Source: Candidatus Parcubacteria bacterium
GTDB taxonomy: Bacteria; Patescibacteriota; Minisyncoccia; Phycocordibacterales; PALSA-1337
NCBI GenBank assembly: GCA_963766795.1
Contig: CAVYBN010000009.1
Span: 14,740 to 78,739 of the forward strand
DNA: 64,000 nt
Reading direction: 5' to 3'
The position numbers and the translations under genes are program-made. Positions within the stretch are counted from its first letter, which is position 1. Each line of letters begins with the position of its first letter. Below are positions 7,269 to 55,767 of the stretch, one piece after another. Under the pieces are notes generated by a model, which did no database searches, had not been told where the DNA came from, and was given only the letters and a program-made list of their open reading frames with translations.

Positions 7269-9140
7269 ATGGTCCTCTTCGCCGTCTCATTCATCGCCGG
7301 AGTGCTCACCGTGCTGGCGCCATGCGTATTGCCGCTTTTACCAGTGACTTTAGGCGGAGCCATGGCTGAAGCGGGGAATCGCCGGCGGCCATTGGTTATA
7401 ATCGGTTCACTTGCCGTCTCGGTTTTCATTTTCACTCTTCTATTAAAAGGTTCGACGGCGTTGCTTGGCACCTCGCCAACCTTTTGGTCGTATGTTTCAG
7501 CGATCATTTTAATCGCATTCGGTCTGACGCTGCTTTTTCCGATAACTTGGGCCAAGATCGTCCTCAAATTGCCCGGCCACAATAAGCCGGAATCGTGGAT
7601 GGCCAAGGGCTATCAGAGCCGCAGTCATTGGTGGGGCGACATCTTGGTCGGCGCGGCGCTCGGTCCGGTTTTCACCACCTGTTCGCCGACATTCTTCGTA
7701 ATCTTGGCGACAGTCTTGCCACAATCGCTTGGACTCGGGATCATTGATCTGCTCGCATACATCGTTGGTCTTTCATTGTCGCTCCTTTTGATCGCGTACA
7801 TCGGCCAGAAGCTGGTCGGCAAGCTTGATTGGGCGATCGACCCCAATGGCTGGTTCAGAAAAGCGCTTGGCGTCCTTTTCATTGTCGTGGCTGTGGTTAT
7901 CGTTTTCGGTTGGGACAAACAGATAGAGGCCAAGATTCTGAACAGCGGGTTCTTCGATGTTACGACGCTGGAGCAGAACATTCACCAGAGCTTGGAAGGG
8001 CCGAAAAGCTACAAGGAGCCGGTAGCTGGTAGTCAGGAGCTAGGAGCTGGAAGCTTGAAGCTAGGAGAAACACAATCGCAGTCAAGCGTTTCCTCGACTT
8101 CTCAACTTCAAGCTCCAAGCTCCAAGCTTCAAGCTTCTGCGGCCAATCAAATCTCGCATGCCAATCTCCCGCCTCCGCCGGTTGAGCAGAATGAGGGACG
8201 CTATGTCGAGATCGCCGACCCGGCCGGATTCGTCAACAGCGCGCCGTTCAAGCTCGCCGACTTCATCGGCAAGAAAGTCATTCTCGTGGATTTCATAGAC
8301 TACACTTGCATCAATTGCGAGCGAACCTTTCCATACCTCGAGAATTGGTGGGACAAGTACAACGATCAAGGCTTGGAAGTCGTGGCTATCCACACGCCGG
8401 AGTTCGCTTTCGAGAAGGATATCTCCAATGTCACCGCCGGCGCCAAGCAGTTCGGCCTGACGTTCCCGATAGTGCTCGATAACGGCTATGCCACTTGGAA
8501 CGCTTACGGCAATGAATACTGGCCGCACAAATACTTCATCGACATCCACGGCGATATCGTCTACGACAAGATCGGCGAAGGCGGCGACAATGTCGTCGAA
8601 GCCGAGATCGTCAAGCTCTTGAATGATCGCCTACGATTCTTGGGCCAGAATGCGGCGGTCAATACAGGCACTTCGACGATGCCGGATTACACGATTCAGA
8701 CCGAAAGCCCCGAGACTTATTTCGGCGCGATGAGGAATGAGTACTTTGGGAATGGCACGCTTTCAATCGCCGGCGATGATTCGTATACGACTCCAAATCA
8801 GTTGACGCCGAATAAATTTTACTTAGGCGGCTCGTGGCATATCGATCAAGAGTACGCAGAAACTAAATCCGCCGGCGACACCTTGTCGTACGAATTCACC
8901 GCCACGAATATGTATATCATCGCCACGACGGCTGATGGAACGCCGGCAATTGCCACGATCCTGATTGACGGTCATTCGATCCCATCCACTTGGGAGGGAA
9001 GCGATGTCGTGAATGGCAAGGTCACGATCAATGCTTCACGTCTCTACCATTTATATTCCAATCCGACGCTCGGCCAGCATCGCATAGATGTCATATTCGA
9101 CAAGCCTGGGACGAGAGTCTACACATTCACGTTTGGGTGA
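7269..9140 (+). CDS. CcdA/DsbD-type transmembrane electron transporter fused to an extracytoplasmic thioredoxin-fold (TlpA/redoxin-like) domain
   Basis: 623 aa. CcdA start VLAPCVLPLLPV with multiple TMs, then a low-complexity linker, then the redoxin motif YTCINCERTFPYL. Confidence 0.85.
   Translation: MVLFAVSFIAGVLTVLAPCVLPLLPVTLGGAMAEAGNRRRPLVIIGSLAVSVFIFTLLLKGSTALLGTSPTFWSYVSAIILIAFGLTLLFPITWAKIVLKLPGHNKPESWMAKGYQSRSHWWGDILVGAALGPVFTTCSPTFFVILATVLPQSLGLGIIDLLAYIVGLSLSLLLIAYIGQKLVGKLDWAIDPNGWFRKALGVLFIVVAVVIVFGWDKQIEAKILNSGFFDVTTLEQNIHQSLEGPKSYKEPVAGSQELGAGSLKLGETQSQSSVSSTSQLQAPSSKLQASAANQISHANLPPPPVEQNEGRYVEIADPAGFVNSAPFKLADFIGKKVILVDFIDYTCINCERTFPYLENWWDKYNDQGLEVVAIHTPEFAFEKDISNVTAGAKQFGLTFPIVLDNGYATWNAYGNEYWPHKYFIDIHGDIVYDKIGEGGDNVVEAEIVKLLNDRLRFLGQNAAVNTGTSTMPDYTIQTESPETYFGAMRNEYFGNGTLSIAGDDSYTTPNQLTPNKFYLGGSWHIDQEYAETKSAGDTLSYEFTATNMYIIATTADGTPAIATILIDGHSIPSTWEGSDVVNGKVTINASRLYHLYSNPTLGQHRIDVIFDKPGTRVYTFTFG
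8045..8147. repeat. Family D (GGAGCT/GAAGCT-unit) hairpin-forming low-complexity block lying in frame in the CcdA-Trx linker
   Basis: aggagctaggagctggaagcttgaagctaggag ... ctcaacttcaagctccaagctccaagcttcaagcttc. The same unit type is at 55354-55422 inside gyrA. Confidence 0.65.
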
Positions 9141-9166
9141 TTCTATCGATGTCCGACCTCTATGGC

Positions 9167-9337
9167 TCAATTCCCGCCCAGCTTCCACCCGAGCCAGATG
9201 CCGGCCAAGCCGCCGATCATCGAGAAGAATATGGATGACAGCGAAAGCACATCGTAATTCCCCCAGAGCGCCGGTATATAAGCGCCGATCGTTCCGCCGA
9301 CGAAGACGCCGATCCAGATCAAGGTTTTCGTGCTCAT
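9167..9337 (-). CDS. Small 2-TM membrane protein (56 aa), function unknown
   Basis: Below the track length cutoff. Own translation: MSTKTLIWIGVFVGGTIGAYIPALWGNYDVLSLSSIFFSMIGGLAGIWLGWKLGGN*. 57 codons checked with no internal stop. Confidence 0.4.
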   Translation of the reverse strand: MSTKTLIWIGVFVGGTIGAYIPALWGNYDVLSLSSIFFSMIGGLAGIWLGWKLGGN

Positions 9338-9338
9338 A

Positions 9339-9367
9339 TTGCCAATAAGTCTAACACAGGTTATACT
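9339..9367 (+). promoter_or_regulatory. Sigma-70-like promoter upstream of msrA
   Basis: TTGCCA, 17-nt spacer, TATACT. The -10 box ends 9 nt before the ATG at 9377. Confidence 0.4.
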
Positions 9368-9376
9368 AGGCGCACT

Positions 9377-9493: not shown

Positions 9494-10047
9494 GCGAAAC
9501 CGCAGTTTTCGCTGGCGGCTGCTTCTGGTGCACGGAAGCGGTCTTCTCGATGTTGAAAGGCGTCAAGTCGGTCATGTCGGGATACTCCGGCGGCAGGCCT
9601 ATGCCCGTAGGCAAGGCTCCGACGTATGAGCAAGTGTCTAATGGCGATACTGGCTACGCCGAATCATTGAAGATCGAATTTGATCCGAGCATCATCACAT
9701 ACGACGATTTGCTCGCGGTCTTCTTCAATACGCACGATCCCACGACCTTGAATCGGCAGGGCTACGATATCGGCTCCGAATATCGTTCGGCCATCTTCTA
9801 TTCGAATGAGGAGCAGAAGCACAAAGCCGAAGCTTTGATCAAGGAATTGGATGACGCCAAAGCCTACGACAAGCCAGTCGTGACCGAGGTACGACCTCTC
9901 GGAGAGTTCTACCCGGCCGAAGAATATCATCGGGATTTTTACAAGAACAACAAGGATTCGATGTATTGCGAGATCGTCATCGAGCCGAAATTGGAGAAGT
10001 TGCAGAAGAGGTTCAGCGAACTCTTGAAAGTTCAAGACGCCGCATGA
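9466..10047 (+). CDS. msrA: Peptide-methionine (S)-S-oxide reductase MsrA
   Basis: Catalytic motif AVFAGGCFWCTEAVF, then YHRDFY. 193 aa. Confidence 0.95.
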   Translation: MAEQKQEKVSETAVFAGGCFWCTEAVFSMLKGVKSVMSGYSGGRPMPVGKAPTYEQVSNGDTGYAESLKIEFDPSIITYDDLLAVFFNTHDPTTLNRQGYDIGSEYRSAIFYSNEEQKHKAEALIKELDDAKAYDKPVVTEVRPLGEFYPAEEYHRDFYKNNKDSMYCEIVIEPKLEKLQKRFSELLKVQDAA

Positions 10048-10354: not shown

Positions 10355-10539
10355 GTTCTCAGTAAGTAATTCTAGTTGATAAGAACATTCATTTGTTAAT
10401 TTACAATCCGCGCAATCAGTTACTAGGAAACAATTAATAGAAGACGAGCAAGCTTTTTAAGAAGATGATTTGAAATTCTCCTTTTGGGAGAAAAAACGTC
10501 GGCAGCTAATTTGCAGTAGTCATTTCCTCTCGTTCATCT

Positions 10540-10664
10540 CACGCATTATGAAACTGGAAGTTTTGATAATAAGTAGGCGTAAAATGGCAATTCAATCCGA
10601 TTTGATGGCTAAAAATCATCGCAAAGAAGCGACTTATTATCAACTTTTCCATTTTCATTTCTCG
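10540..10664. repeat. Family G element, copy A (conserved flanks, 12-bp perfect IR TTGATAATAAGT/ACTTATTATCAA, 57-nt core)
   Basis: IR-L 10563-10574, core 10575-10631, IR-R 10632-10643. The second copy is at 56183-56307 with the core in the opposite orientation. Confidence 0.75.
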
Positions 10665-10854
10665 TGAAGCGAAAGAGAAGGAACCATCCCCATAAGGCCA
10701 TGAACCAGTCATCAATGTTCCTAATCTTAACATGAACTTCATTTCCGACACGCTCACAATGCTACACTTCCTTAAAAAGCTTCCATAAAAGCCTTCCTTT
10801 GGCAGTATGGACTCGCACCAGATTATACTATACTTGTGTAGTATGATTACAACC

Positions 10855-14561: not shown

Positions 14562-14623
14562 AAAATTATTAGTGAAGTGCGATTTAACTAATCACTTATC
14601 ATTGTAAACTGTAAACTTGCCTT

Positions 14624-15424
14624 ATGTCCGACTACTACAACTTCCGTCGCGATAAGAACCTGTTCGACCCGGCTTCGTCGGAGCCGTTCCGTTGCAGCCG
14701 TTCGAAGATAGACCTGTTCCTGAATTGTCCGCTCTGCTTCTACCTCGATTGCCGTCTAGGCGTCGGTCGGCCGCCCGGCTATCCATTCGCGTTGAACAGC
14801 GCTGTTGACGCGCTCCTGAAGAAAGAATTCGACATACACCGTGCCGCCAAAGCGCCGCACCCCTTGATGGAAGCGTACGGATTGAGAGACGTCATCCCGT
14901 ATGATCACAAGGATCTTGGTCTCTGGCGGCAGAACTTCAAGGGCATCCGTTTCATCCATAAGCCGACCAATCTATTAGTGACCGGCGCCGTTGACGATGT
15001 CTGGGTGGATTCTAAAGGAGAATTGATCATTGTAGATTACAAGTCCACCAGTAAAGAGGAGAAAGTTTCGCTCGACAAGGAATGGCAGATCGGCTACAAG
15101 CGCCAGATGGAAGTCTATCAGTGGCTGTTCCGACAGAACGGCTTCAAGGTCTCTTCGACCGGCTATTTCGTTTATTGTAACGGCAAGACCGACCGCAAGG
15201 CTTTCGACGCCAAGCTCGAATTCGACATCGATCTAATCCCATACAAAGGCGACGCTTCATGGATCGAGAAAGCTCTGGCTGACATCAAAAAATGCTTGTT
15301 GCTCGACAAGCCGCCCAAGCCGGCGCCTCCGCCAGCTGGCGGATGCGATCATTGCAATTACCGGAAAGCGGCGAGGGATGTGCAATCAGAAACTCAAAAG
15401 TCAAAAGGCAAAAGTCAAAAATAG
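14624..15424 (+). CDS. PD-(D/E)XK nuclease family protein (Cas4/RecB-like, Cys-cluster)
   Basis: 266 aa. N-terminal CPLCFYLDC, core GAVDDVW...LIIVDYKST, QMEVYQWL, C-terminal CDHCNY. Confidence 0.7.
   Translation: MSDYYNFRRDKNLFDPASSEPFRCSRSKIDLFLNCPLCFYLDCRLGVGRPPGYPFALNSAVDALLKKEFDIHRAAKAPHPLMEAYGLRDVIPYDHKDLGLWRQNFKGIRFIHKPTNLLVTGAVDDVWVDSKGELIIVDYKSTSKEEKVSLDKEWQIGYKRQMEVYQWLFRQNGFKVSSTGYFVYCNGKTDRKAFDAKLEFDIDLIPYKGDASWIEKALADIKKCLLLDKPPKPAPPPAGGCDHCNYRKAARDVQSETQKSKGKSQK
15328..15343. repeat. 16-bp palindrome TCCGCCAGCTGGCGGA (perfect)
   Basis: Lies inside the PD-(D/E)XK nuclease gene and is read as PPAGG immediately before CDHC. Confidence 0.95.
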
Positions 15425-15594: not shown

Positions 15595-15646
15595 ATTAAG
15601 AAACCTATAAGAAAAGTTAAAATAATCGTGAAGAAAAGTTAAAATT
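15595..15646 (-). repeat. Family H 52-nt motif (two TTTTAACTTTTCTT units), copy 1, inverted relative to copies 2 and 3
   Basis: The reverse complement equals aattttaacttttcttcacgattattttaacttttcttataggtttcttaat, identical to 51639-51690. Confidence 0.8.
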
Positions 15647-15710
15647 TTCGTGAAGAAAAATACGAAGGCGTAGAGCCATTGTTCTGTCTTCGCTCGCGCG
15701 TATGCCCGCC

Positions 15711-16448
<738 letters not shown>

Positions 16449-16532
16449 GGCCGCAGTCTAGCACACAATCAGGAAGTGTGAAGCAACTGCTGAAAGGGGA
16501 GAAACTAGGGATAACTGGATATAAGTCGGCTA

Positions 16533-16560
16533 TTGACTTACGAGTTTTAAAATGTATACT
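16533..16560 (+). promoter_or_regulatory. Sigma-70-like promoter (TTGACT-16-TATACT)
   Basis: Good -35 and -10 hexamers. It points into a terminator-ended 75-nt noncoding stretch. Confidence 0.4.
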
Positions 16561-16566
16561 TGTAAG

Positions 16567-16641
16567 TACGAAACTGCCCCCGTACCGAAAAAGTGGCGTT
16601 TATCGCCCAGCTTTCCCGAAAGGGATAGGTACGGGGGTTTT
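16567..16641 (+). ncRNA. Candidate ~75-nt small RNA (promoter to intrinsic terminator), convergent with the DUF3800 gene
   Basis: Outer 10-bp stem cccccgtacc (16577-86) / ggtacggggg (16628-37) followed by TTTT. Inner hairpins ggcg-tttat-cgcc and tttccc-gaaa-ggga. Confidence 0.3.
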
Positions 16642-16647
16642 CGCTGC

Positions 16648-17289
16648 TCAATTTGGCCATACATCGACATTTTCTTCGTGTCGGACGATGAGTTTTCTGA
16701 AACTGTCTTTCGCCTTGGAATTACCGACCATCGATCTGTTGATAGCGCCAGCCACATAATCCGCTAATTGTAAGAGGTTGTTCGATTCAGATCTTTGTAG
16801 ATTGACGCGTTTGATCACTTTCGAATCGCGGTTCATCTTGTGTCTCAGATATTGTCTAAGCTTGTTGCCAAAGTCTAGATTTCCAGTCCTATCTATGACC
16901 ACCGCGGCATCATGTAAATCGTGCTTGGCATTTTCAAATACGAGTCCGCATGCATATTGATAAAAATCGTCTTTGTTAGCCAGTCCTTGGATTAATGGAT
17001 CATGTAAGTCCTTCCGTATGACGACGCCGTAATAATAGAAGTCACAGGATGCGACTGTCATCAGGAATTTTTCCCTGATCTTATTGGAGTTCATTTTGAA
17101 ATGAAACTCGCTGTCAGGTTTCCAGCCAAGCTCTTTTCTCAAAAGATCTATCCGGCGTTCGCAAGCCAGAGCGTCTTCATCATCTTCAAATACGACCATA
17201 GTAATGGTAAAGAAACGGCTGGAGCCGCTCTCCAACTTGAGCCCTGAATCCCCTGATTCGTCGATGAATGCGAGCATTGGTTTAAACAA
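16648..17289 (-). CDS. DUF3800-family protein
   Basis: 213 aa. N-terminal LAFIDESGDSG motif typical of DUF3800. Lies in an AT-rich islet. Confidence 0.65.
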   Translation of the reverse strand: MFKPMLAFIDESGDSGLKLESGSSRFFTITMVVFEDDEDALACERRIDLLRKELGWKPDSEFHFKMNSNKIREKFLMTVASCDFYYYGVVIRKDLHDPLIQGLANKDDFYQYACGLVFENAKHDLHDAAVVIDRTGNLDFGNKLRQYLRHKMNRDSKVIKRVNLQRSESNNLLQLADYVAGAINRSMVGNSKAKDSFRKLIVRHEENVDVWPN

Positions 17290-17468
17290 TCAATTAAAAA
17301 ACGCGCCTCTCGGCGGTCGTCTTCTTTTGGCTGCGCATGCCGCGGGGCAGGCACAGTTGACTGTGAACCTATTATACCAAATGCCAAATTGGAAACAAAA
17401 TCAACCCAACAAAAATCGTAGCAGGCCTCGTTTGACTTCGCTCTGCCTTTTTGGTAAGTTGTACCGAC

Positions 17469-18227
17469 ATGTCAAACGCACAGAAATCCATGGAAACCAT
17501 GTTCACGGCCGGAGCCCACTTCGGCCTGGGACGCTCGCGACGGCACCCGTCAGCCAAGCCCTACATCTTCGGCACCAAGAACTCTACCGACATCTTCGAC
17601 CTCGAGAAGACCGGTGCCATGCTCGAAGCCGCCAAGGCATACGTAGCCGATTTGGCCAAGAATGGCAAGACGATCCTATTTGTCGGAGGCAAGAAGGAAG
17701 CCAGCGCTGCCGTCAAGGCCGGCGCCCAGTCGGTCGATCTCCCGTATGTCGAGGGCCGCTGGATCGGAGGGACCATCACCAATTTCTCGCAGATCAGGAA
17801 GCGCATCGAGCGCTACGAGAAGCTCGTCTCCGACAAGGAAAAGGGCGAGCTTGCCAAATACACCAAGCGCGAGCGCATGCTCTTCGACAAGGAGATCGCC
17901 GACCTGGAGAAGATGTTCCTCGGCATCGTGCCGCTGAAGAAGGCCCCTGACGCGCTCTTCGTCATCGATCCCCGCCGCGAATCCATCGCTATAGCCGAAG
18001 CCGCCCACGGCAAGATTCCGGTAGTCGCCCTGGCTGGCTCCGATTGCGATATGCGCGCCATCGCCTATCCGATCGCCGGCAATGACTCTTCCAAGGGCAG
18101 CATCCAGTTCTTCGTGGGAGAGATCGTTGATGCTTATCAGGAAGGCAAGAAGTCCGCGCCTCCGCCGGCTGGCGGATCAGTGCCAGCGACCGCACCGAAG
18201 GCCATGCCTGACGGCAGGCAGGCTTAA
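17469..18227 (+). CDS. rpsB: 30S ribosomal protein S2
   Basis: MFTAGAHFGLGRSRRHPSAKPYIFG..N.TDIFDLEKT...; followed by tsf. ATG at 17469. Confidence 0.95.
   Translation: MSNAQKSMETMFTAGAHFGLGRSRRHPSAKPYIFGTKNSTDIFDLEKTGAMLEAAKAYVADLAKNGKTILFVGGKKEASAAVKAGAQSVDLPYVEGRWIGGTITNFSQIRKRIERYEKLVSDKEKGELAKYTKRERMLFDKEIADLEKMFLGIVPLKKAPDALFVIDPRRESIAIAEAAHGKIPVVALAGSDCDMRAIAYPIAGNDSSKGSIQFFVGEIVDAYQEGKKSAPPPAGGSVPATAPKAMPDGRQA
18161..18176. repeat. 16-bp palindrome, one-mismatch variant TCCGCCGGCTGGCGGA
   Basis: Lies in the RpsB C-terminal tail and is read as PPAGG. Confidence 0.85.
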
Positions 18228-19490: not shown

Positions 19491-19543
19491 GTCATAGTCG
19501 ATCGTAATTTTTGACTTTTGAGTTTTGAATTTTGAGTTAACTT

Positions 19544-19616
19544 GCCGCCTTAGCTCAGTTGGTAGAGCAACGCTTTTGTAAAGCGAAGGTCCCCAGTTCA
19601 AGCCTGGGAGGCGGCT
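19544..19616 (+). tRNA. tRNA-Thr (anticodon UGU)
   Basis: Manual cloverleaf: acceptor GCCGCCT/AGGCGGC, D arm GCTC-AGTTGGTA-GAGC, anticodon loop TTTGTAA, T arm CCCAG-TTCAAGC-CTGGG. 73 nt, no encoded CCA. Confidence 0.9.
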
Positions 19617-19665
19617 CCTAGAAAAACTTAAAACTCAAAAGTCAAAATTCAAAACTGCCAGCCAG

Positions 19666-26165: not shown

Positions 26166-26364
26166 ATTTCTAATTGACCTAATTACCTAATTTCTAAGAA
26201 AATATCAAATCCCAAAAATCAAATTCCAGAAAAATCTCAATGTTCAAATTTCAAAAGTCATTGTATTATTTTGATTATTGAATTTCGGAGCTTCTCTGGA
26301 ATCTGTGATTTGAATTTTGAAATTTTAATCATTGATTGGGATTTAGAACTTTTTAGGTCAATTT
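26166..26364. repeat. Family A long AT-rich imperfect palindrome, copy 2
   Basis: tttctaattgacctaattacctaatttctaa...caaattccagaaaaatctcaa // ggagcttctctggaatctgtgatttg...ttaggtcaatt. Confidence 0.75.
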
Positions 26365-28509: not shown

Positions 28510-29457
28510 ATGAATAAGAACAAATTTATCAGCTTGGTTTGCGCGGCACTCATCGCCATTCCGGCTGTTGCCGTAGCCCAATCTGCTCCGGCAGCTGGGG
28601 ATTCCGTCTCGAGCGCGTCTGTTTCTGCCGCTCCCTCGACCGGAGGTTCTGTATCGTCCGCTTCTTCGGATTCCGCTCCGTCTACTGGCGGTTCTGTTTC
28701 CAGCGCCAGCTCCGGATCGGCTCCTTCTACCGGCGGCTCATCTTCGTCTGCTAGTTCAGGTTCAGCTCCTTCTACCGGCGGATCTGTTTCCAGCGCCGGA
28801 CAGGGAGCTTCACCCGTCACTCCCGCTCCGACACCGACCCCTGCCGGCGGCTCTTCCGGCTCTTCCGGTTCCAGCGGTTCTTACTCCGGCGGCGGTTCGT
28901 ACGGCGGCTACTCTTCCGGTGGATCGTCGGTGGTTCCGGTTGCCGGCTTCTGCCCGTTCGTGAGCGATCTCATGAGCCCCGGCGCTTCTAACGACGCTGT
29001 CCAAGTCTCCAAGCTCCAGGCTTTCCTCAAAGACACCGAGGGATACGATGTCGACGTGAACGGGGCTTTCGACCGGAAGACCGAGGCCGCCGTCATCGCC
29101 TTCCAGACCAAGTATATGTCCGACATCATGGGCCCTTGGGGCGCCACCAAAGCTTCCGGCACGGTCTATCTCACCACACTGAAAAAGATCAATGAGATCG
29201 CTTGCAGCACGGCTCTCAATCTGACCGTCTCCGATCTCGCGATCATCAACGCTTACAAGCAGGGCAATTCAGCCTCGGCCGTTTCCGGAACGGTCGGCGT
29301 GAATCAGAATGCGAATAGCGTCGTCGCTGTCGGTTCCGCTGTCACCGCTTCTACTTCAGGCTCTGACATTCTCTCCACCGGCAATCCGAACGTCGCCGCC
29401 GTCGGTCAAGCTTCCATCTTTACCCGCTTCTGGAATTTCCTGAAGAGTTTGTTCTAA
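28510..29457 (+). CDS. Secreted protein with a Ser-rich tandem repeat and a peptidoglycan-binding (PG_binding_1-like) domain
   Basis: Signal peptide. About 4 tandem 16-aa units APSTGGSVSSASSGS (48-bp period, about 28630-28800). Then VSKLQAFLKDTEGYDVDVNGAFDRKTEAAVIAFQTKY. Confidence 0.7.
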   Translation: MNKNKFISLVCAALIAIPAVAVAQSAPAAGDSVSSASVSAAPSTGGSVSSASSDSAPSTGGSVSSASSGSAPSTGGSSSSASSGSAPSTGGSVSSAGQGASPVTPAPTPTPAGGSSGSSGSSGSYSGGGSYGGYSSGGSSVVPVAGFCPFVSDLMSPGASNDAVQVSKLQAFLKDTEGYDVDVNGAFDRKTEAAVIAFQTKYMSDIMGPWGATKASGTVYLTTLKKINEIACSTALNLTVSDLAIINAYKQGNSASAVSGTVGVNQNANSVVAVGSAVTASTSGSDILSTGNPNVAAVGQASIFTRFWNFLKSLF

Positions 29458-29461
29458 TCAT

Positions 29462-29548
29462 AAAAATCTCAAATTCCAAAGATCAAATTCCAGAGAAGCT
29501 CCAAATCTCAAAGATCAATTAATATATGTATCTTTGAAATTTGAAATC
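29462..29548. repeat. Family A element, short copy 3
   Basis: aaaaatctcaaattccaaagatcaaattccagagaagctccaaatctcaaagatcaa ... tctttgaaatttgaaatc. Confidence 0.6.
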
Positions 29549-45949: not shown

Positions 45950-45999
45950 AGTGCGGCTATTGTAGGCTAAAAAATTGCTTTACGCAAGTTTTTTGTCTT

Positions 46000-46082
46000 G
46001 TCATCCCCGCGAAAGCGGGGATCCAGGGTTTTAATATTTTATCAGTGTTTCGACCCTGGATTCCGGCTTTCGCCGGAATGAC
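46000..46082. repeat. Family C compound palindromic element, copy 2
   Basis: gtcatccccgcgaaagcggggatccagg ... ccctggattccggctttcgccggaatgac. Confidence 0.85.
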
Positions 46083-46515
46083 AGAGTTTAAATTTGATAT
46101 TTGAAGTTTGTGATTCGGTGCTTGCAGGCAATATGCAGATGTGAAAGAATTGATGTGGCAAATTGAACCGCTCTTCCAAGAGCACAAAAATTAAATAAGC
46201 CTATGAATACTTCAAGTCAGACTCAGCCGATAAGTTCAAAGCTACGCCGACATGGCGTAGTCGCTATTCACACCGAAGGTGATACGTTAACGGAGGCTGG
46301 GCAAGATGCTCTTGCTTCAGTCTATGACGCGATGCAACCTGCCTTGACAAGTGAACTTGCCCGAACTGATGAACCTGAATGCCCCGAAGATCCTCGCGTT
46401 CCCAGGTTCGATTGACGGGCTCAATCGTTCTTCGTTTTCCAAGCTCTTTCACAACCCTCCCTTCACCGGGAGGACTTTTTTGCCTTTTCAATCAAAAAGA
46501 CATATCATAGTCGCC

Positions 46516-47124: not shown

Positions 47125-47141
47125 TGCCTGGTAATCAGATT

Positions 47142-47229
47142 CCCCGAGGTCGGACCTCTGTCAGGCTGTATGCCGATGTTTTACTCGATTCGATTATCAG
47201 TAGTTTTTACTCGAGGTCCGACCTCGGGG
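47142..47229. repeat. REP pair (family B) forming a 17-bp-stem inverted repeat between convergent genes
   Basis: ccccgaggtcggacctc (47142-58) and gaggtccgacctcgggg (47213-29). Confidence 0.85.
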
Positions 47230-47233
47230 ATAA

Positions 47234-48655
47234 CTATTTTGCGCCAGCAAAGGATAACGCCATCTTCTGCTCCTTAGGGTCGAAGAGCGAGATCTTGAAC
47301 GGATAGGTCTTGCCGAGCTCGAGGGCTTTCTTGAGCTTCTCCTCGGAGCCGAACTCGCTGACATGGACCAGGCCGGCCACGCCTTCCTCGATCGAGGCCA
47401 AAGCGCCGTGCTTGTTGAACTTGATGATCACGCCCGAGACGGACATGTCCTTCTTGTATTTCTTGCCGGCGTCGATCCAAGGATTCTGGCGGAGCTGCTT
47501 GATCGAGAGCGAGATCTTGCCGTCCTTGATCTCGATGATCTTGGCCTTGATCTTGTCGCCGACTTTGACGAAATGGCGCGGGTCGTCCACCAATCCCCAA
47601 TCGATCTCGGAGATGTGGACCAGGCCCTCGAGCCCTTCCTCGAGCTTGACGAAGACGCCGAAGTCCACCACGCCGGTGGCCACGCCCTCGACTTCGTCGC
47701 CGATCTCGTACTTGCTGACGATCTTCTCCTTTTCCTTGTGCTCGGAGCCTTTCTCCGAGAAGATCAGCTTGCCTTCCTTTGGGTCGGCGGTGATGATCGA
47801 GAGCTGGAGGCGCGTGCCGACCAGCTTCTTCAGTTCTTCCAGGATCTTGTCCTTGTCGCCGTCGCCGACGCGCGGATAGTGCTCGGCTTTGAGCTGGGAG
47901 GCCGGCAGGAATCCGGTGATGCCCTGCCATTCGATGAGCAAGCCGCCCTTGTTGGCTTCCTTGATCGGGAGGTCGAGGACGCGCTTCTCCTTGATGGAGA
48001 GCTCCGCTTCGCTCCAGATCAGGGCTTGGCGGGCCTCTTTCAATGACAATTCATAATAGCCTTCCTTGTGGCTCCAGTCCACGATCTTGGCGGCCACGAC
48101 ATCGCCGACGTTGATCTTCTTTATGACGTCGCGGGCGATGATGTATTCACGGCCATAGATGATGCCGGTGCCGAATGGCGTCAAGTCCACGAATATCGCG
48201 GCTTTGTCGATGGCGATGACCGGACCTTCGATGAGGTCGCCGATGCCAGGCGGATTCTTCGTCGTCGCGGCCAAGAGAAGCCCCATCGGGCTGGCTTTCT
48301 GCTCTTCGGTCAATTCCATCTCGCCCTGTTTCTTGGTGGTCGGCTTCGGATCAGAGAGATCCACATGCGAATCTTTATCCGCGCGCTTAGCACGCTTGGC
48401 AGTCTTCGCATCGGTAGGATTAGAATCGGCCACGGCTTTAGCCGCTTTCGGTGAAGCGGGATCAGTTTTCGCCTTATTCGCTTTTACGCTCTTACTATCA
48501 GTATCAGCGTCTCCCGCGGAGGTTCGACCTCCGTTGTCGTTGTCTTTATTCTCGCTGGCTTCAATGCCAGCATCCTTATTAGTATCAGAATCGCTCGGCT
48601 CTTTAGTCGCGGGATCTTTGACCCCCGTGAGGGTCTCTCTTAATTTTTTGAACAT
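47234..48655 (-). CDS. rpsA: 30S ribosomal protein S1-like protein (four S1 domains, acidic/basic N-terminal extension)
   Basis: Repeated S1 motifs, e.g. VEGVATGVVDFGVFVKLEEGLEGLVHISEI and VSGVIIKFNKHGALASIEEGVAGLVHVSEF. Confidence 0.82.
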   Translation of the reverse strand: MFKKLRETLTGVKDPATKEPSDSDTNKDAGIEASENKDNDNGGRTSAGDADTDSKSVKANKAKTDPASPKAAKAVADSNPTDAKTAKRAKRADKDSHVDLSDPKPTTKKQGEMELTEEQKASPMGLLLAATTKNPPGIGDLIEGPVIAIDKAAIFVDLTPFGTGIIYGREYIIARDVIKKINVGDVVAAKIVDWSHKEGYYELSLKEARQALIWSEAELSIKEKRVLDLPIKEANKGGLLIEWQGITGFLPASQLKAEHYPRVGDGDKDKILEELKKLVGTRLQLSIITADPKEGKLIFSEKGSEHKEKEKIVSKYEIGDEVEGVATGVVDFGVFVKLEEGLEGLVHISEIDWGLVDDPRHFVKVGDKIKAKIIEIKDGKISLSIKQLRQNPWIDAGKKYKKDMSVSGVIIKFNKHGALASIEEGVAGLVHVSEFGSEEKLKKALELGKTYPFKISLFDPKEQKMALSFAGAK

Positions 48656-49350: not shown

Positions 49351-50340
49351 GGAGAGGTATCCCCGCACGGCCTAATTTGCTGATAGAATTACCGCATGGC
49401 CAGGTCATCCAAATACGGGATCCGCGAGCTTCACCGCGATTTTCCGACGAACAAGGCCTGTCTCGAATTCATATTTGATTCGCTTCATACCCGCAGATGT
49501 TCATGCGGCGGTACCTATGCTCTTCGCAATGAGCGCAAAAAATTTCAATGCGGCAGGTGCCGTTCCGAGATCGCCCCGGCCGTCGGTACGGTATTCGAGA
49601 AATCATCGACTCCGTTCGTGCTCTGGTTCCACGCTCTCATGGTTTTCTCCAATGCCAAAAGCGGCGTCTCGGCCAAGCAATTGGAGCGTCACTTGGCCGT
49701 CACATACAAGTGCGCATGGAGGATCCTCCACGAGATCAGAACCTCGCTGAAGCAAGGCATTAAAAGGCTTGTCGGTGATGTTGAAACCGATGGGGCGTAC
49801 TTTGGCGGCAGAAAGACCGGTCCAAAAGACGGAAAGCGGCTCAGGGAGGCCTTCGAGAGGAAATCCAAGGCCATGGCAGCCGTCGAACGAGGCGGGGACA
49901 TGCGAGCCAAGACGGTCATTGGAATGGGAACGGCGCCGACCGGCGATTTCGTTCTCCGTCATATCGAGCCCGGAACGCGCCTCATGACCGACAAGAGCAA
50001 CACATTCGTCAAAGTCGGAAGGCTGTATGATCATCATGCCGTGGACCATCACCGGAAGGAGTATGTCCGCGGGGACGTTCACGTCAACACGGTCGAATCG
50101 TTCTGGTCGCACGTCAAGCGGAGCGTTGCCGGGACGCACAAGGGCGTTTCGAAACAGCATTTGGAGGAGTACCTAAACGGCTTTGTTTTCCACTACAACA
50201 ACCGGAGCAACGACAGGAAACGCTTCCTGACCTTGCTTGATATCGTATTACGCGCCTCAAAAGCGCAAGAAATTCCGCTCTCTTCACGCAACAAAGTATA
50301 TATCAATTCAGCAAATTAGGCCGTGCGGGGATACCTCTGA
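49351..50340 (+). mobile_element. IS1595-family insertion sequence (about 990 bp)
   Basis: Perfect 31-bp terminal IRs, agaggtatccccgcacggcctaatttgctga (49353-83) and its reverse complement (50308-38). TTTTCT lies at both outer flanks (49345-50 and 50341-46). Single transposase ORF. Confidence 0.85.
49396..50319 (+). CDS. IS1595-family (ISXO2-like) DDE transposase with an N-terminal zinc ribbon
   Basis: CSCGG...CGRC zinc ribbon, VETDGAYFGG, LMTDKSNTF, HHAVDHHRKEYVRGDVHVNTVESFWSHVKR. Confidence 0.85.
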   Translation: MARSSKYGIRELHRDFPTNKACLEFIFDSLHTRRCSCGGTYALRNERKKFQCGRCRSEIAPAVGTVFEKSSTPFVLWFHALMVFSNAKSGVSAKQLERHLAVTYKCAWRILHEIRTSLKQGIKRLVGDVETDGAYFGGRKTGPKDGKRLREAFERKSKAMAAVERGGDMRAKTVIGMGTAPTGDFVLRHIEPGTRLMTDKSNTFVKVGRLYDHHAVDHHRKEYVRGDVHVNTVESFWSHVKRSVAGTHKGVSKQHLEEYLNGFVFHYNNRSNDRKRFLTLLDIVLRASKAQEIPLSSRNKVYINSAN

Positions 50341-50471
50341 TTTTCTAGCAAGAAAGATGTGTCATGCCGCCCGCATTTCCATGTCTTTCAACCGCCTGGT
50401 CTGTTTTCTAATCGAGCCAAGCCTTAAAAGAATGCTTGAAACTAATCACTTCTCACTGTAAACTGTAAACT

Positions 50472-51140: not shown

Positions 51141-51272
51141 AAATTCCAAAGACCAAATATCAAATTCCAGAAAAGCTCCAAATTTCAATGATCAAACAGC
51201 ATATGAATTTTTGGAATTTGGGTTTTGAGATTTATCTGGAATTTGTGATTTGAAATTTAAGATTTTAATCGC
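51141..51272. repeat. Family A element, copy 4
   Basis: aaattccaaagaccaaatatcaaattccagaaaagctccaaatttcaa // tttggaatttgggttttgagatttatctggaatttgtgatttgaaattt. Confidence 0.7.
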
Positions 51273-51292: not shown

Positions 51293-51595
51293 ATGAGCTT
51301 CGCAACCTATATCGAAAACCTGCGCGCCAAGCCGGAGCATGAGCGCAAGCGCTTCGCATTCTGGTCGTCGCTCTGCTTCACGGCGATCATCGCCGCGTTC
51401 TGGCTGGCTTCGTTCACCGGCATCAATATCGGCGCGGAAAGCGCCGTCAGCTCCGCCGTCGCCAAAGCCGGCACGCCGGCGCAATCGTTGGTAGCCGGAG
51501 TCGGCGCATTCGGCGGCGATGTCTGGACGATGTTGACCGGTCCCAAGAAGATCAGCTACGCCGAGATACAGGTCTCGCCGGGGAAATCCCACTGA
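51293..51595 (+). CDS. Small membrane protein, hypothetical
   Basis: 100 aa with one TM (FAFWSSLCFTAIIAAFWLASF). Confidence 0.5.
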   Translation: MSFATYIENLRAKPEHERKRFAFWSSLCFTAIIAAFWLASFTGINIGAESAVSSAVAKAGTPAQSLVAGVGAFGGDVWTMLTGPKKISYAEIQVSPGKSH

Positions 51596-51620
51596 GGTCG
51601 GACCTACGTAGGTCGGACCT
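51594..51620. repeat. REP (family B) tandem half-sites upstream of the RAYT gene
   Basis: gaggtcggacct-acgt-aggtcggacct. Confidence 0.8.
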
Positions 51621-51638
51621 ATGCATCGAGATTAAGGA

Positions 51639-51690
51639 AATTTTAACTTTTCTTCACGATTATTTTAACTTTTCTTATAGGTTTCTTAAT
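51639..51690 (+). repeat. Family H motif, copy 3
   Basis: aattttaacttttcttcacgattattttaacttttcttataggtttcttaat. Identical to the reverse complement of 15595-15646. Confidence 0.8.
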
Positions 51691-51707
51691 CACCCATCTG
51701 ATACTCT

Positions 51708-51734
51708 GAGGTCGGACCTACGGAGGTCCGACCT
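51708..51734. repeat. REP hairpin ending at the RAYT start codon
   Basis: gaggtcggacct-acgg-aggtccgacct, then ATG at 51735. Confidence 0.8.
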
Positions 51735-52295
51735 ATGTATTACCATGTGTACAACCGAGGAGCTCACAAGGCGCCAATATTTCTGGAACCTCAAGATTAT
51801 CAGAGATTCTTGAGACTTTTATATATTTCCAACAGCACGAGATCTTTCATGACTAGGGATTTTGCTGACAGCTCCATATTCACTGCTGATCGAGGGAAAA
51901 ACATCGTATCAATAGCTGCCTATTGTCTTATGCCAAATCACTTCCATATTGTCCTCGAGGAAAACGATGGATGCGGAATGACAAAATTTATGCGTAAGTT
52001 ATGTACCGGATATTCAATGTATTACAACAAAAAATATAAGCATTCCGGCACGATCTTTCAAGGAAAATATAAGTCAAAGTCAGTGATTGACGATGTCTAT
52101 TTTCAAGTTCTTATGAATTATGTGCACTTGAATCCATTCGGTATAGAGGAACCGATGCTTATGAAATCGACATATACAGAACATTTTAAAGAAGCCTTTG
52201 CAGCCTCAAGTAAATACGAATATTCAAGTCTAAAGGATTATTTAGGAGAAAATCGCCCTCAAAAAGTCATTCTCGCCGAGGTCCGACCTACGTAG
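51735..52295 (+). CDS. REP-associated tyrosine transposase (RAYT; IS200-like Y1 HUH transposase)
   Basis: 186 aa. HUH motif CLMPNHFHIVLEE, then SGTIFQGKYKSK, then catalytic-Tyr region NYVHLNP. Confidence 0.85.
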   Translation: MYYHVYNRGAHKAPIFLEPQDYQRFLRLLYISNSTRSFMTRDFADSSIFTADRGKNIVSIAAYCLMPNHFHIVLEENDGCGMTKFMRKLCTGYSMYYNKKYKHSGTIFQGKYKSKSVIDDVYFQVLMNYVHLNPFGIEEPMLMKSTYTEHFKEAFAASSKYEYSSLKDYLGENRPQKVILAEVRPT

Positions 52296-52305
52296 GTCGG
52301 ACCTC
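52278..52305. repeat. REP, perfect 28-bp palindrome overlapping the RAYT stop codon
   Basis: gaggtccgacctacgtaggtcggacctc is its own reverse complement. Confidence 0.9.
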
Positions 52306-52376
52306 GAGGGTAATATAAAACCCCCGCGGCCGGTTTGACGCGGCGCGCGGGGATGGGGAAAGTGGGGGAACGCAAT

Positions 52377-52834: not shown

Positions 52835-52863
52835 AAGATAGCATATATGTATATTGTTGTCAA
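52835..52863 (-). promoter_or_regulatory. Sigma-70-like promoter (TTGACA-17-TATCTT on the minus strand)
   Basis: Shares the block atatatgctatc with the promoter at 63788-63816. Confidence 0.4.
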
Positions 52864-53036
52864 GTCGCTTACTCGCCTCTTTTTTGCTATATAGATGACT
52901 ATATAGCAATTTCACTCGGACATTGAGCAAATGTAATTTGCCCATGATCCTCGTTCATTGCTATAATTAAACAGTAAAAAGGTGCGGTTGTGAGGGCTTT
53001 TTCTTTTTGCAATCAGGTAAGGGTATAGGGGCTGGT

Positions 53037-53123
53037 GTCATCCCCGCGAAAGCGGGGATCCAGGGTCAGACCACAGATATCGAAAGAGGTGATACACTGG
53101 ATTCCCGCGTGCGCGGGAATGAC
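53037..53123. repeat. Family C compound palindromic element, copy 3
   Basis: gtcatccccgcgaaagcggggatccagg ... cactggattcccgcgtgcgcgggaatgac. Confidence 0.85.
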
Positions 53124-53212
53124 AAAAAATCTTTCCTTACTGATTTCCAATCCCAATTTGGTTCCAATCTCTGATTCTGAATTCCTGTACCCTGTATTCT
53201 GAACCCTAATTC

Positions 53213-55767
53213 ATGGCCAAAAAATCCGACAACAACCCAGAGCCAGTTGCACCAATCAGAGCTGAAGGCGCCGGCATCATCGCGCGCTCGATCACGACCG
53301 AGATGCGCGAATCATTCCTCGACTACGCCATGTCGGTCATCACCGACCGCGCATTTGCCGGACGTGCGCGACGGCTTGAAGCCGGTGCATCGCCGCATCC
53401 TCTATGCCATGCACGAGAAGGGTCTGACGTTCCAGGCGAAGTTCCGCAAGTCCGCGGTCGTCGTCGGTGACGTCTTGGGCAATTATCACCCGCACGGCGA
53501 TGTGGCCGTCTATGAATCCATGGTCAAGATGGCGCAGGACTTCACCATGCGCTATCCCTTGATTCAAGGCCAAGGAAACTTCGGCACGGTCGACGGCGAC
53601 TCTGCGGCTGCCATGCGCTACACCGAAGCCAAGATGTCGCGATTGGCGTCAGAGCTGCTGCAAAGACATCGACAAGAATACCGTGGATTTCCGGCCGAAC
53701 TATGACGGCACCAAGAAAGAGCCGTCGGTCCTGCCGACCGCCGTTCCAAACCTGCTCCTGAATGGCACGCTCGGCATCGCCGTCGGCATGGCCACCAACA
53801 TCGCTCCGCACAATCTCGGCGAAGTCGTGGACGCCAGCGTCCATCTCATCGACAATCCAGAAGCTTCGACCGATGACCTCTGCCAATTCATCAAAGGCCC
53901 GGATTTTCCGCTCGGCGCCGTCATTTACGGCGAGAAGGATATTCGGCATGCCTATGCTACCGGCCGCGGCGGCATGACCGTGCGCGGCGAAGCCGAGATC
54001 ACCGAAGACAAGAAGGGCATGTACCAGATCATCATCACCTCCATCCCATTCAGCGTCAACAAGAGCGAGCTCATCATCAAGATCGCCGACTTGGTCCGCG
54101 AGAAAGACATCGAAGGCGTCAAGGCTCTTGCGCGACGAATCAGACAAGGAGCTCCGCATCGTCATTGACCTGAAGCAAGGCTCATACCCGGAAAAAGTCC
54201 TCAATCTTCTGTACAAGCACACGCAATTGGAAGAGACTTTCCATATGAATACGTTGGCGTTGGTCCACGGCGTGCCGCAGACATCTGTCATTGAAATCGA
54301 TCCTGCAGGAATTCGTCACGCATCGCATCGAAGTCATCCGCCGCCGCACCAAGTTCGATCTCGACGCCGCCGAAGCGCGCGAGCACATTTTGCTCGGCTT
54401 GAAGAAAGCCCTTGACCACATAGACGAGATCATCACGCTCATCCGCGCTTCCGCCGATGTCGCCGACGCCAAGGCCGGCTTGATGAAGAAATTCAAGTTC
54501 AGCGACCTTCAGGCGACTGCGATCCTTGAAATGCGCTTGCAGAAGCTGGCAGGTCTCGAACGCAAGAAAGTCCTCGATGAATTGAAAGAAGTGCAGGCGC
54601 TTATCGAAGATTTGAAGGGTATTCTTGGCTCGGAGAAGCGCGTGCGTACCATCATCAAGACCGAGCTTGCCGACATCAAGACGAAATATGGAGACGAGCG
54701 TCGCACAAAAATCGTCAAGCATGGCGTCAAGGAATTCAGCGTCGAGGATCTCATCGCCGACGAGGAGTCGGTGCTGGTCCTCACCAAGGGCGGCTACATC
54801 AAGCGCACCGATCCCGGCGAATATCGCAAACAGAAGCGCGGCGGCGTCGGCGTCGTCGATCTTGATACAAAGGAGGAGGATTTCATATCGCATCTGATCT
54901 TCGCCACGACTCACAACGACCTCCTGTTCTTCACCGACAAAGGCAAGGCCTATCAGCTCAAGATGTTCGAGATCCCCGAAGGCAAGCGCGCCACCAAGGG
55001 CAAATCCATCATGAATTTCCTGTCATTGGCGGAAGGCGAGCGCGTGACTTCGATCTTGCCTATGCCCCACGAATAAGAAGGAGGCTGAAGGATTGTCGCT
55101 CATGATGGTGACTAAGAATGGCACTGGCAAGAAATCGTCAGCCGCTCATTTCAAGGATGTGCGCCGCTCGGGATTGATCGCGATCACTCTCGATCCAGGC
55201 GACGAATTGATCTCCGTCTCATTCGTGTCCAAGTCGGATGAAGTCGTCATCGCCACCAAGGAAGGGCAGTCGATCCACTTCAAAGAGTCTGATGTTAGAG
55301 AGATGGGCAGGAATGCGGCAGGGGTTAGAGTGATCAAATTGGCGGAAATAAAAGAAGCTAGGAGCTCGAAGCTAGGAGCTAGTAGCAAATCTTCCAGCTC
55401 CAAGCTCCCAGCTCCAAGCTCCGATTGTGTCATCTCCGCCGACGTAGTTTCCAAAGACGCCAAGAATCCGGCATTATTCGTCATGAGCTCCAACGGCTAC
55501 GGCAAGAAGACCAAGCTCTCCGAATACAAAGTCCAAGGACGCGGCGGTTCCGGCATCCTGACCATGAATGTCACGCCCAAGACCGGCTCGCTCATGGCCG
55601 CCAAAGTCGTCACCGACGATGTCGAGGAGGTCGTGGCTATGTCCAAGAAATCCCAAGTCATCCGCGTTGCCCTCACAGAGATCCCAGCCTTGTCCCGCGC
55701 CACTCAAGGCGTGCGCGTCATGAAGCTCCGCGACGGCGACCAGCTGGCGAGCTTGATCTGTTTGTAA
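53213..55767 (+). pseudogene. gyrA: DNA gyrase subunit A, reading frame interrupted five times (each break repaired by removing one base)
   Basis: Six track ORFs concatenate to a full GyrA ([11 protein letters not shown]|[19 protein letters not shown]...YHPHGD...|[14 protein letters not shown]...|RDESDKELRIVIDLK...|LKSILQEFVTHRIEVIRRR...|KKEAEGLSLMMVTKNG...). Breaks are at about 53354-56, 53662-64, 54130, 54285 and 55074. Confidence 0.9.
55354..55422. repeat. Family D (GAAGCT/GGAGCT-unit) hairpin block lying in frame in the GyrA C-terminal domain
   Basis: gaagctaggagctcgaagctaggagctag - tagcaaatctt - ccagctccaagctcccagctccaagctcc. Translated as EARSSKLGASSKSSSSKLPAPSS. Confidence 0.7.

Follow-up and report, generated by a model that had tools for sequence, protein, structure and literature searches.

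Short DNA repeats lie in frame inside conserved genes of an ultra-small bacterium of the Candidate Phyla Radiation (CPR), and they are probably the sieved survivors of mobile palindromes and slippage-prone arrays that live mainly between genes. They are found in a 64,000 nt stretch of contig CAVYBN010000009.1 (assembly GCA_963766795.1, positions 14,740 to 78,739), referred to here as the window, in which palindromic elements are present in frame within tsaD, an S1 protein gene and a pilin-like gene, hairpin arrays of 7 nt units within gyrA and a ccdA-thioredoxin (ccdA-trx) fusion gene, and further arrays within trxB. A sequence-only reading of the window had listed seven repeats of this kind and interpreted them as spacer-type palindromic DNA inserted into intact open reading frames (ORFs); all seven are located where it placed them, and the peptides it quoted for them are correct.

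The host genome is a metagenome-assembled genome (MAG) of Candidatus Taylorbacteria (Paceibacteria, CPR). The nearest relatives of the TrxB, TsaD and CcdA-Trx proteins are encoded by Patescibacteria/Paceibacterota MAGs, the 80 best loci for the GyrA C-terminal domain (CTD) among species-representative genomes carry titles that are mostly Candidatus Taylorbacteria or Paceibacteria, and the type IV secretion system (T4SS)-type pilin genes in the window are consistent with this assignment. The window has a G+C content of ~52% and a coding share of ~82%. An Rfam scan of the window found no known RNA family at any repeat, the only matches being four tRNAs and a DUF3800-IX RNA (16576–16642, 51.6 bits against a gathering score of 36.8). 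L-numbers and P-numbers, as in P0121/L002 and P0002/L001, are labels of related loci and proteins.

Palindromic elements in reading frames

The element in tsaD is a doublet (REPIN) of a repetitive extragenic palindromic (REP) sequence, and the same family is associated in the window with a gene for a REP-associated tyrosine transposase (RAYT)-like protein. The features concerned are as follows.

29548–30852, − strand: tsaD coding sequence, 434 aa if M25 of the longest ORF is taken as the start (Pfam TsaD 3.7e-68; PDB and orthologue alignments)
30545–30615, − strand: REPIN in tsaD, in frame, encoding ..SEVGPRGHPDGGPTSE..
47141–47230, unstranded: intergenic REP pair; its 18-nt arms are perfectly complementary and lie 54 nt apart
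48519–48531, − strand: REP singlet (1 mismatch), in frame in the S1 protein gene, encoding ..DNDNGGRTSAGDAD..
51594–51621 and 51708–51735 (span 51594–51735), unstranded: two REP doublets upstream of the RAYT gene
51735–52295, + strand: RAYT-like Y1/HUH transposase gene, 186 aa, whose final codons (..AEVRPT and stop) lie within a REP doublet
52278–52305, unstranded: REP doublet at the RAYT gene's 3' end, in inverse orientation to 51708–51735

The REP unit is a 13-nt imperfect palindrome, GAGGTCSGACCTC, which occurs as singlets, tight doublets and one spaced pair. Its core, GAGGTCGGACCTC, gives 28 strand-hits at 14 positions in the window (up to 2 mismatches) where 1.7 are expected, two of these being the tsaD doublet, and it is also found in six related Taylorbacteria loci besides L002. 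Within tsaD the two inverted cores (30560–30572 and 30588–30600) enclose a 15-nt centre, the palindrome reaches 21-nt arms, and the predicted RNA fold has an energy of −40.4 kcal/mol (z −4.35 relative to shuffles).

The place of the REPIN in the protein is clear from comparison with orthologues. Relative to Escherichia coli TsaD, the PDB alignment shows ~55 extra residues between residues 67 and 70, the bulk of which is a conserved, lineage-wide helical segment (LESFRAEV..QNPELFESF..ADFLK) seen in an alignment of 26 Paceibacteria TsaD proteins; the share of the REPIN is ~16 aa. The length of 434 aa, which had been taken as a sign of insertion, is not unusual in a lineage in which TsaD ranges from 390 to 505 aa. 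Immediately before the helical segment is a variable spot with 0 to ~45 residues across Paceibacteria, and the REPIN sits exactly there. In the AlphaFold model its peptide corresponds to residues 84–97, a coil with a predicted local distance difference test (pLDDT) score below 50, lying between helix 58–79 and the lineage-specific helices 104–136.

The closest relative (P0121/L002, 86–87% identity) carries the same element at this codon site, but turned round: the arms are identical, and the 17-nt centre matches at 15/17 positions as its reverse complement and at 3/17 directly. Both orientations are open, with the peptides FSEVGPRGHPDGGPTSEN and FSEVGPPSGCPRGPTSEN. At the same site L001, P0122 and P0124 carry an unrelated and longer segment (124 nt in L001). 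Because it is inverted in L002 and its place is taken by an unrelated segment in the next relatives, the tsaD REPIN is a young element of a small clade, which has either been re-inserted or flipped. A frame break splits the L001 tsaD gene (16362–17941) into two called ORFs, and the gene has an extra insert of ~190 nt at a third variable site (17355–17567) that matches the long insert of P0122. An array at 29000–29022 in a peptidoglycan-binding protein gene was considered as an insert and ruled out, as it is ordinary conserved coding sequence.

The RAYT-like gene is the likely source of the transposase acting on the REP/REPIN family, as judged from its sequence and setting. It matches Pfam Y1_Tnp (8.5e-10) and carries the motifs HFHIV (HUH) and YVHLNP (tyrosine), and its sole NCBIfam match is to the REP-associated tyrosine transposase, at 40.8 bits and so below the cut-off of 80. 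REP doublets bracket the gene on both sides and its stop codon falls within one of them; an orthologue with the same REP-doublet flanks is present in another species (L029, 3051–3644, the arrangement spanning 3051–3682). With a core shared with the spacers, a RAYT gene that has REP flanks, and a doublet that is inverted in one relative and absent from others, the tsaD element is of the palindromic, mobile type that the sequence-only reading had supposed. A mobility that depends on the RAYT would be indicated indirectly only, by these differences among relatives at the one site. Between the two doublets upstream of the RAYT gene is one copy of a ~42-nt module with two copies of AAGAAAAGTTAAAATAATCGTG (~51630–51695, opposite strand), the other being at 15600–15660. 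An IS1595 (ISXO2-like) DDE transposase gene is located at 49396–50319, 1.4 kb upstream of the RAYT region.

Most REP copies are extragenic, and the exceptions, the tsaD doublet and the S1-gene singlet, are both in frame. The singlet sits in a low-complexity N-terminal extension of ~115 aa of the S1 ribosomal protein and was absent from the earlier list of repeats. A REP-like 13-mer in msrA (9886–9898) lies inside the Pfam domain and is probably there by chance.

A second kind of palindrome, family C, is present in four window copies.

3237–3309, unstranded: family C copy, 73 nt
45999–46083, unstranded: family C copy, 85 nt, intergenic
53036–53124, unstranded: family C copy, 89 nt, intergenic, upstream of gyrA
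58956–59066, + strand: family C, 110 nt, in the pilin-like gene, with a nested 30-nt insert in one arm

Family C is a palindrome of 73–110 nt that resembles transposable elements of the miniature inverted-repeat type (MITEs), with terminal inverted repeats of ~31 nt, each containing a small CCCCGCGAAAGCGGGG hairpin, and no ORF of its own. A 28-mer from its arm has five matches in the window, including 59038–59065, where none is expected, and copies are also present in four related loci. The copy in the pilin-like gene, which had likewise been regarded as a palindromic mobile-type element, does match these dispersed copies; its fold has an energy of −56.7 kcal/mol (z −4.3). It lies in frame between ATG 58897 and the hydrophobic core, that is, in the n-region of the signal peptide, where orthologues have M and a short basic n-region (often ..SKFK..) before the hydrophobic core. 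The only in-frame starts, GTG 58879 and ATG 58897, are both upstream of the element and there is none between it and the hydrophobic core; the element is therefore translated if the pilin-like protein is made at all. The hydrophobic core itself is encoded by a perfect (TTCTCCTT)x4 array (59090–59121). This is a possible phase-variation site, since the unit does not amount to whole codons and slippage would therefore switch the gene off.

Period-7 arrays in genes and spacers

The third kind of repeat is a tandem array, usually of 7 nt units. The arrays in genes, with the genes that carry them, and those in spacers or at ORF edges to which they are compared, are listed here.

7269–9140, + strand: CcdA(DsbD_TM)-redoxin-Thioredoxin_10 fusion gene, 623 aa
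8014–8137, + strand: period-7 hairpin in the CcdA-Trx linker, encoding aa 249–293
35970–36995, − strand: trxB coding sequence (AhpF-like thioredoxin reductase), 341 aa
36647–36742, − strand: two period-7 arrays in trxB, (GTTCAAA)x4.3 and (ACAAGGN)x5.6 on the coding strand, with a 28-nt spacer between them
53213–55767, + strand: gyrA, in which reading through requires five +1 frame changes; a single ORF covers the CTD segment 55093–55767
55353–55422, + strand: period-7 AGCT hairpin at a beta-turn of the GyrA CTD, encoding EARSSKLGASSKSSSSKLPAPSS
15390–15420, + strand: (AAAGTCA)n array at the end of a PD-(D/E)XK gene (14624–15424); ORF edge
19509–19656, + strand: inverted TTTTGAN arrays around tRNA-Thr (19544–19618), intergenic, forming a ~25-bp stem (fold z −6.1)
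38011–38427, − strand: four-helix-bundle (23S rRNA intervening sequence (IVS) protein family) gene 38022–38414 with flanking arrays; ORF edges

Tandem Repeats Finder shows that period 7 dominates the window, in striking excess, and strict period scans of shuffled sequence gave no such arrays. In each unit six bases are fixed and one wobbles (GATTCAN, TTTTGAN, AGCTNNN, TCTAATC and others, some with period 8 or 9), and inverted pairs of arrays, forming stems of 25–35 bp, are frequent. Related loci contain 88 period-7 arrays in 0.92 Mb, and a GTNNAAA family of units recurs at the level of the lineage in TrxB, GyrA and spacer arrays. As 7 is not a multiple of 3, the periodicity is a feature of the DNA and not of the protein. 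A census of the window (period 7–9, at least 2.7 copies) gave 26 arrays, of which 13 are between genes, five at gene edges and eight in gene interiors; this is a roughly ten-fold depletion in gene interiors, in the direction that the sequence-only reading would lead one to expect.

In trxB the two arrays (Tandem Repeats Finder scores 53–70) together add ~30 aa in PDB alignments, in agreement with the surplus noted in the sequence-only reading: insert-free relatives have 304–311 aa, which is the common length among 120 close homologues. The insert occupies a single loop, of highly variable length across homologues, between two adjacent strands in the model, and residues 93–120 have pLDDT below 50. 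It is common to the three closest genomes, and in L001 its units differ, the first array having TGCAAAA in every copy where the window has GTTCAAA. The second array differs as well, while the 28-nt centre between the arrays (NEEAKIEVG) is conserved in L001. This turnover of units is concerted evolution. In the insert-free orthologue L167 the native turn AKTTAG aligns with AKIEVG of the centre, so the two arrays flank the native turn. A separate TrxB subclade has GTCAAAG and AAGTCGA arrays that start at the same codon.

The arrays in the CcdA-Trx linker and in the GyrA CTD share units. An AGCT-spaced motif, AGCTNNNAGCTNNNAGCT, has 11 matches against 0.12 expected, all of them in one or the other. 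The CcdA-Trx hairpin (−44.4 kcal/mol, z −4.6) has a 5' arm of AGGAGCT/GAAGCT units, a 34-nt loop and a 3' arm of CAAGCTC/CAAGCTT units, and is positioned in the linker between the membrane and redoxin domains, which has 0–70 aa and is of low complexity in all relatives. The hairpin is absent from L083 (78% identity), which has an 18-nt tandem duplication instead, and is present in identical form in L084, an independent Logan assembly that overlaps the window at 4206–8603 only and is 99.93% identical over 4.4 kb. L084, which comes from the same population, has a one-C difference in the CCC run that directly follows the hairpin (window position 8168), and its ORF is thereby cut short at 342 aa (P0332).

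The GyrA hairpin (−31.7 kcal/mol, z −4.65) adds ~27 aa relative to residues 200–214 of the E. coli GyrA CTD. A tight turn, LGKGD (VIKL-GKGD-EVISAD), occupies this site in 55 of the 80 genomes and in 46 of the 77 metagenome loci. Inserts in the turns of other relatives differ, and several are 7-mer arrays (CGAAAGT in L008, GCGCAAA in L005, and those of L009 and L003). The AGCT hairpin is present again in the closest relative, L085 (86% identity), where it is slightly changed and has a 9-nt indel that keeps the frame.

The inserts are derived and lineage-restricted: they are missing from most orthologues, and the length of their sites differs from one member of the lineage to another. The sequence-only reading had held that homologous inserts at the same sites in unrelated lineages would count against it; inserts are indeed present there, but they are mostly different in sequence, and the sites are therefore recurrent hot spots. 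Its proposal that inserts survive where frame and fold tolerate them is well borne out by the locations of the true inserts, namely the length-variable TsaD junction, the TrxB beta-hairpin loop, the GyrA turn and the CcdA-Trx linker, and it agrees with the low pLDDT of the TsaD and TrxB inserts once they are mapped on models. Among the peptide strings encoded at the inserts are EVGPRGHPDGGPTSE, SSKLGASSK and VQSPKFKVQNEE.

Two further cases that had been read as insertions are ORF edges entering flanking arrays. The Pfam domain of the PD-(D/E)XK protein ends at aa 248 of 266, after which the ORF enters the (AAAGTCA)n spacer array; the tail after the domain is given as 12 aa, and the last 11 codons and the stop context come from the array. 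The four-helix-bundle gene is bracketed by inverted GATTCAN arrays (38011–38041 and 38400–38427) that encode its first ~7 and last ~6 aa only. Gene and arrays behave together as a cassette, with ftsZ on one side and a conserved terminator hairpin on the other; in L001 the corresponding slot (5896–6750) holds an NlpC/P60-like gene.

Among other spacer repeats, the orthologous spacer upstream of a solute-binding-protein gene has (TCTAATC)n in the window (57560–57576) and a (CTCTAAG)n hairpin in L009 (8440–8550), and the one-base difference between these units in every copy is again concerted evolution. The sequence (A)CTGTAAACTGTAAACT is directly upstream of two starts, at 14603–14617 (ATG 14624, the PD-(D/E)XK gene) and 50455–50471 (ATG 50472, a metallo-beta-lactamase-fold gene). 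Compound palindromes made from CTAATTGAC 9-mers and TCAAATTCCAGA-type modules are located at 480–704, 26170–26353, 29469–29496 and 51141–51265, and a further inverted-repeat family (ACGCATTATGAAACTGGAAG..) at 10523–10683 and 56184–56308. The tRNA-Glu gene (35879–35951) has a TTTTGAN-type array on its upstream side only. Array stems around tRNAs were rejected as a general feature, being found at one of 21 tRNAs (the tRNA-Thr of the window) and at none of the 17 in related loci. Also rejected was a stop-codon sieve by which coding arrays would be free of stops in all three frames, since the GyrA 5' arm is open only in the frame that is used.

Origin of the in-frame repeats

On the account that we consider probable, the genome carries three short-repeat systems that live mainly between genes, namely the REP/REPIN family with its likely RAYT-type HUH tyrosine transposase, family C and the period-7 tandem arrays, and new copies or units would sometimes arise within genes. 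REPINs and family C would arrive by transposition, while slippage during replication and switching of templates would give rise to the arrays, with native codons as the seed of at least one. Events that break the frame, add a stop or disturb the fold would be purged by selection, and the survivors would be a small number of in-frame copies, restricted to domain junctions, linkers and beta-turns and translated into loops that are disordered and of low complexity. Inserts that became fixed would be inherited vertically and would keep evolving as DNA repeats, with units homogenised by concerted evolution and the REPIN able to flip. Close relatives do share inserts by descent; the movements and slippage events themselves presumably took place as described, and the inserts are presumably neutral.

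Several observations weigh against this account. The tsaD REPIN stands in place of a longer variable segment and is therefore not a clean insertion, and inspection alone (of four flanks in the case of family C) found no target-site duplications or empty-site footprints for either the REPIN or family C. The RAYT protein is divergent, with a score under the curated NCBIfam cut-off, and a sequence search found no solved relative of it. The pilin-like gene could be a pseudogene, and more generally we only infer that the inserts are translated. In-gene copies that match spacer copies by sequence are those of REP and family C only, so that the term spacer-type applies to these two and not to the AGCT-type and TrxB units, which have no intergenic copy in the window and for which ~1.5 Mb of related loci gave a single, loosely similar array (in L009); the link of these units to the spacer repeats is therefore one of architecture, that is, of period 7. 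With few close relatives to compare, an ancient array followed by many losses may fit the TrxB and GyrA sites as well as repeated gains do. Finally, gyrA is frame-broken in the assembly by five single-base insertions (near 53356, 53640, 54115, 54284 and 55066).

The main rival concerns the arrays only. It holds that the TrxB, GyrA and CcdA inserts are home-grown, microsatellite-like expansions of native loop codons in which nothing moved, the hairpin arms having formed by intrastrand template switching and the likeness to spacer arrays reflecting a shared replication slippage bias. We favour local slippage without copying for TrxB, where the arrays flank a retained native turn, where the first looks as though it has grown in place by slippage instead of having been inserted, its unit (GCAAAAT) resembling the native GCAAAAGT of L167, and where the description of inserted palindromes fails also because they form no hairpin (fold z −1.25). 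The same view is encouraged by the reappearance of GTNNAAA units in GyrA of L008 and L009 and, at one and the same codon, in different TrxB subclades, by the plain tandem duplication in the L083 linker, by the lack of spacer copies of the AGCT and TrxB units in the window, and by the 5' arm of L085, which begins at GCAGAAGCT, A-E-A codons that are found at the GyrA turn in several relatives. As an explanation of the whole set it is unlikely, leaving unexplained the tsaD REPIN and family C, both of which match dispersed spacer copies, as well as the sharing of unusual hairpin units by the unlinked ccdA and gyrA genes, of which ~1.5 Mb of related loci have essentially none. For these AGCT hairpins the choice is undecided, and they could be either copied or home-grown. 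It is improbable, in turn, that the hairpins in genes are under selection as RNA or DNA structures (for RNase III or other processing, or as pause or replication signals) with the peptide as a by-product, performing the same function as the stems around tRNA-Thr and the four-helix-bundle gene. In favour are the strength of the in-gene stems (−31 to −44 kcal/mol, z about −4.5), the retention of that of GyrA in L085 despite sequence changes, and the stems that spacer arrays do form around a tRNA and a small gene; yet most orthologues lack a hairpin at these sites, the TrxB arrays do not pair, and cleavage within an essential mRNA would be harmful.

Selection on the protein for flexible loops or linkers rich in K, S, Q and E, for instance for solubility or interactions, with the nucleotide periodicity incidental, could account for the low-complexity inserts of many sequences that the same sites hold across the lineage, and for the conservation of an 8-aa EADAKKKIAAD-type insert throughout one GyrA subclade. 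We regard it as very improbable: a 7-nt period and complementary arms are nucleic-acid features without an amino-acid reading, the REPIN is tolerated in both orientations with different peptides, and the units of an array change in step with one another, whereas the peptide is free to vary. That the repeats are artefacts, misassembled into genes or carried by pseudogenes in a poor MAG, is hardly credible. It gains something from the five gyrA insertions, at least two of which are extra bases in short homopolymers and which are either consensus errors or marks of a decaying gene, and from a lesion in a tRNA. The latter, at 32674–32748, has an 8-nt anticodon loop (ARAGORN anticodon 'gatc'), and its L001 orthologue is a normal tRNA-Val(GAC) that differs within the tRNA solely by the one extra anticodon T, a +1 lesion of the same type as in gyrA. 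Quadruplet decoding of the gyrA +1 sites by this tRNA was considered and rejected, as there is no GATC at any frameshift site. On the other side, independent assemblies agree (L084 for CcdA, L085 for GyrA, L002 for tsaD, and P0002/L001 and P0003 for TrxB), and every insert is in frame and has homologous sequence on either side. The description of the hosts as intact ORFs accordingly fails for gyrA as a whole and stands for its 224-aa CTD segment, in which the hairpin is in frame, all of the breaks being upstream.

Comparison with known repeats, and implications

The phenomenon is of a known kind, in-frame selfish or slippage-derived repeats, and what is new here is that other repeat types are involved. 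Rickettsia palindromic elements (RPEs), on the summary given in a review, are palindromic repeats located both between genes and in frame within coding genes (Ogata et al. 2000, via PMC10969869); they are ~100–150 bp long, encode a conserved peptide and have nearly half of their copies in genes (PMC10969869). The likeness lies in hairpin repeats that are both intergenic and in frame in unrelated housekeeping genes, at fold-compatible sites, in a reduced genome. The differences are that the repeats here are a 41–59 nt REPIN, a 73–110 nt palindrome and period-7 arrays, the proposed likeness being one of mode, that in-gene copies are a small minority, and that the host is a CPR bacterium. As a phenomenon, in-frame RPEs are the nearest precedent.

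REPIN-RAYT systems, the nearest known counterpart of the tsaD element, have been described for proteobacteria, with REPINs defined as extragenic (Bertels & Rainey 2011, PMC3116915; PMC3337134). The window resembles them in its short palindromic REP core, its inverted doublets predicted as hairpins, and its single REP-flanked HUH/Tyr transposase, shared by related species; it departs from them in the in-frame tsaD doublet and S1 singlet, in the divergence of the RAYT and in spacer lengths unlike those of the Pseudomonas cases. No report of REPIN-RAYT in CPR bacteria was found, though no literature search was aimed at this point; literature on CPR-specific palindromic or in-frame repeats and on the family C peptides (SFPRKRES, VIPAKAGIQ and others) yielded nothing relevant. 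Bacterial MITEs that enter genes include ERIC, BOX, the Anabaena MITEs and QMITE1 of Coxiella (reviewed in PMC10969869). Family C is like these in having terminal inverted repeats, no coding capacity, dispersed copies and an in-frame fusion with a host ORF, and unlike them in its insertion in a signal-peptide n-region and in that no target-site duplication or parent insertion sequence was identified, nor a link to the IS1595-type transposase gene at 49396–50319.

Heptanucleotide tandem repeats (STRR) of cyanobacteria were reportedly described by Mazel et al. in 1990. Repeats of TAACTGA are known from Beggiatoaceae (PMC4679880). The period-7 arrays share with both an abundance that is mainly intergenic and lineage-specific, but they have other units and another host, occur as inverted pairs that form stems with a wobbling seventh base, and are in some cases translated in essential genes. 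Simple-sequence contingency loci bring about phase variation by repeat slippage in surface-protein genes. The perfect (TTCTCCTT)x4 array is similar, with a non-triplet unit in the 5' part of a pilin-like gene, but no copy-number polymorphism was observed, the two near-identical assemblies overlapping at 4206–8603 only. The gyrA, trxB and ccdA arrays are imperfect and belong to essential genes that could not be turned off without lethal effect.

Inserts specific to the lineage are a known trait of CPR/Patescibacteria proteins, and the repeats described here provide a concrete and testable source for some of them, in the form of a REPIN, a MITE-like palindrome and 7-nt arrays that appear as loops in TsaD, GyrA, TrxB and a thiol-redox fusion. 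They extend in-frame selfish DNA of the Rickettsia type to a very different lineage with a reduced genome, place a REPIN, which is extragenic by definition, inside an essential gene in either orientation, and document the concerted evolution of non-triplet arrays within reading frames. When CPR genomes are analysed, such inserts also distort alignments, gene calls and predicted structures. A more speculative suggestion, to which we hold only tentatively, is that the Taylorbacteria/Paceibacteria may have a previously undescribed, lineage-wide system of period-7 'wobble' arrays (GTCRAAA, GATTCAN, AGCTNNN), made or spread by a dedicated mechanism, which forms stems around tRNAs and small cassettes in spacers, repeatedly colonises the GyrA, TrxB and CcdA-Trx turns and evolves in concert, alongside a CPR REPIN-RAYT system that could establish itself, in frame, within an essential gene. 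The well-known abundance of inserts in CPR proteins would then be owed in part to the dynamics of repeats at the DNA level and not to selection at the level of the protein.

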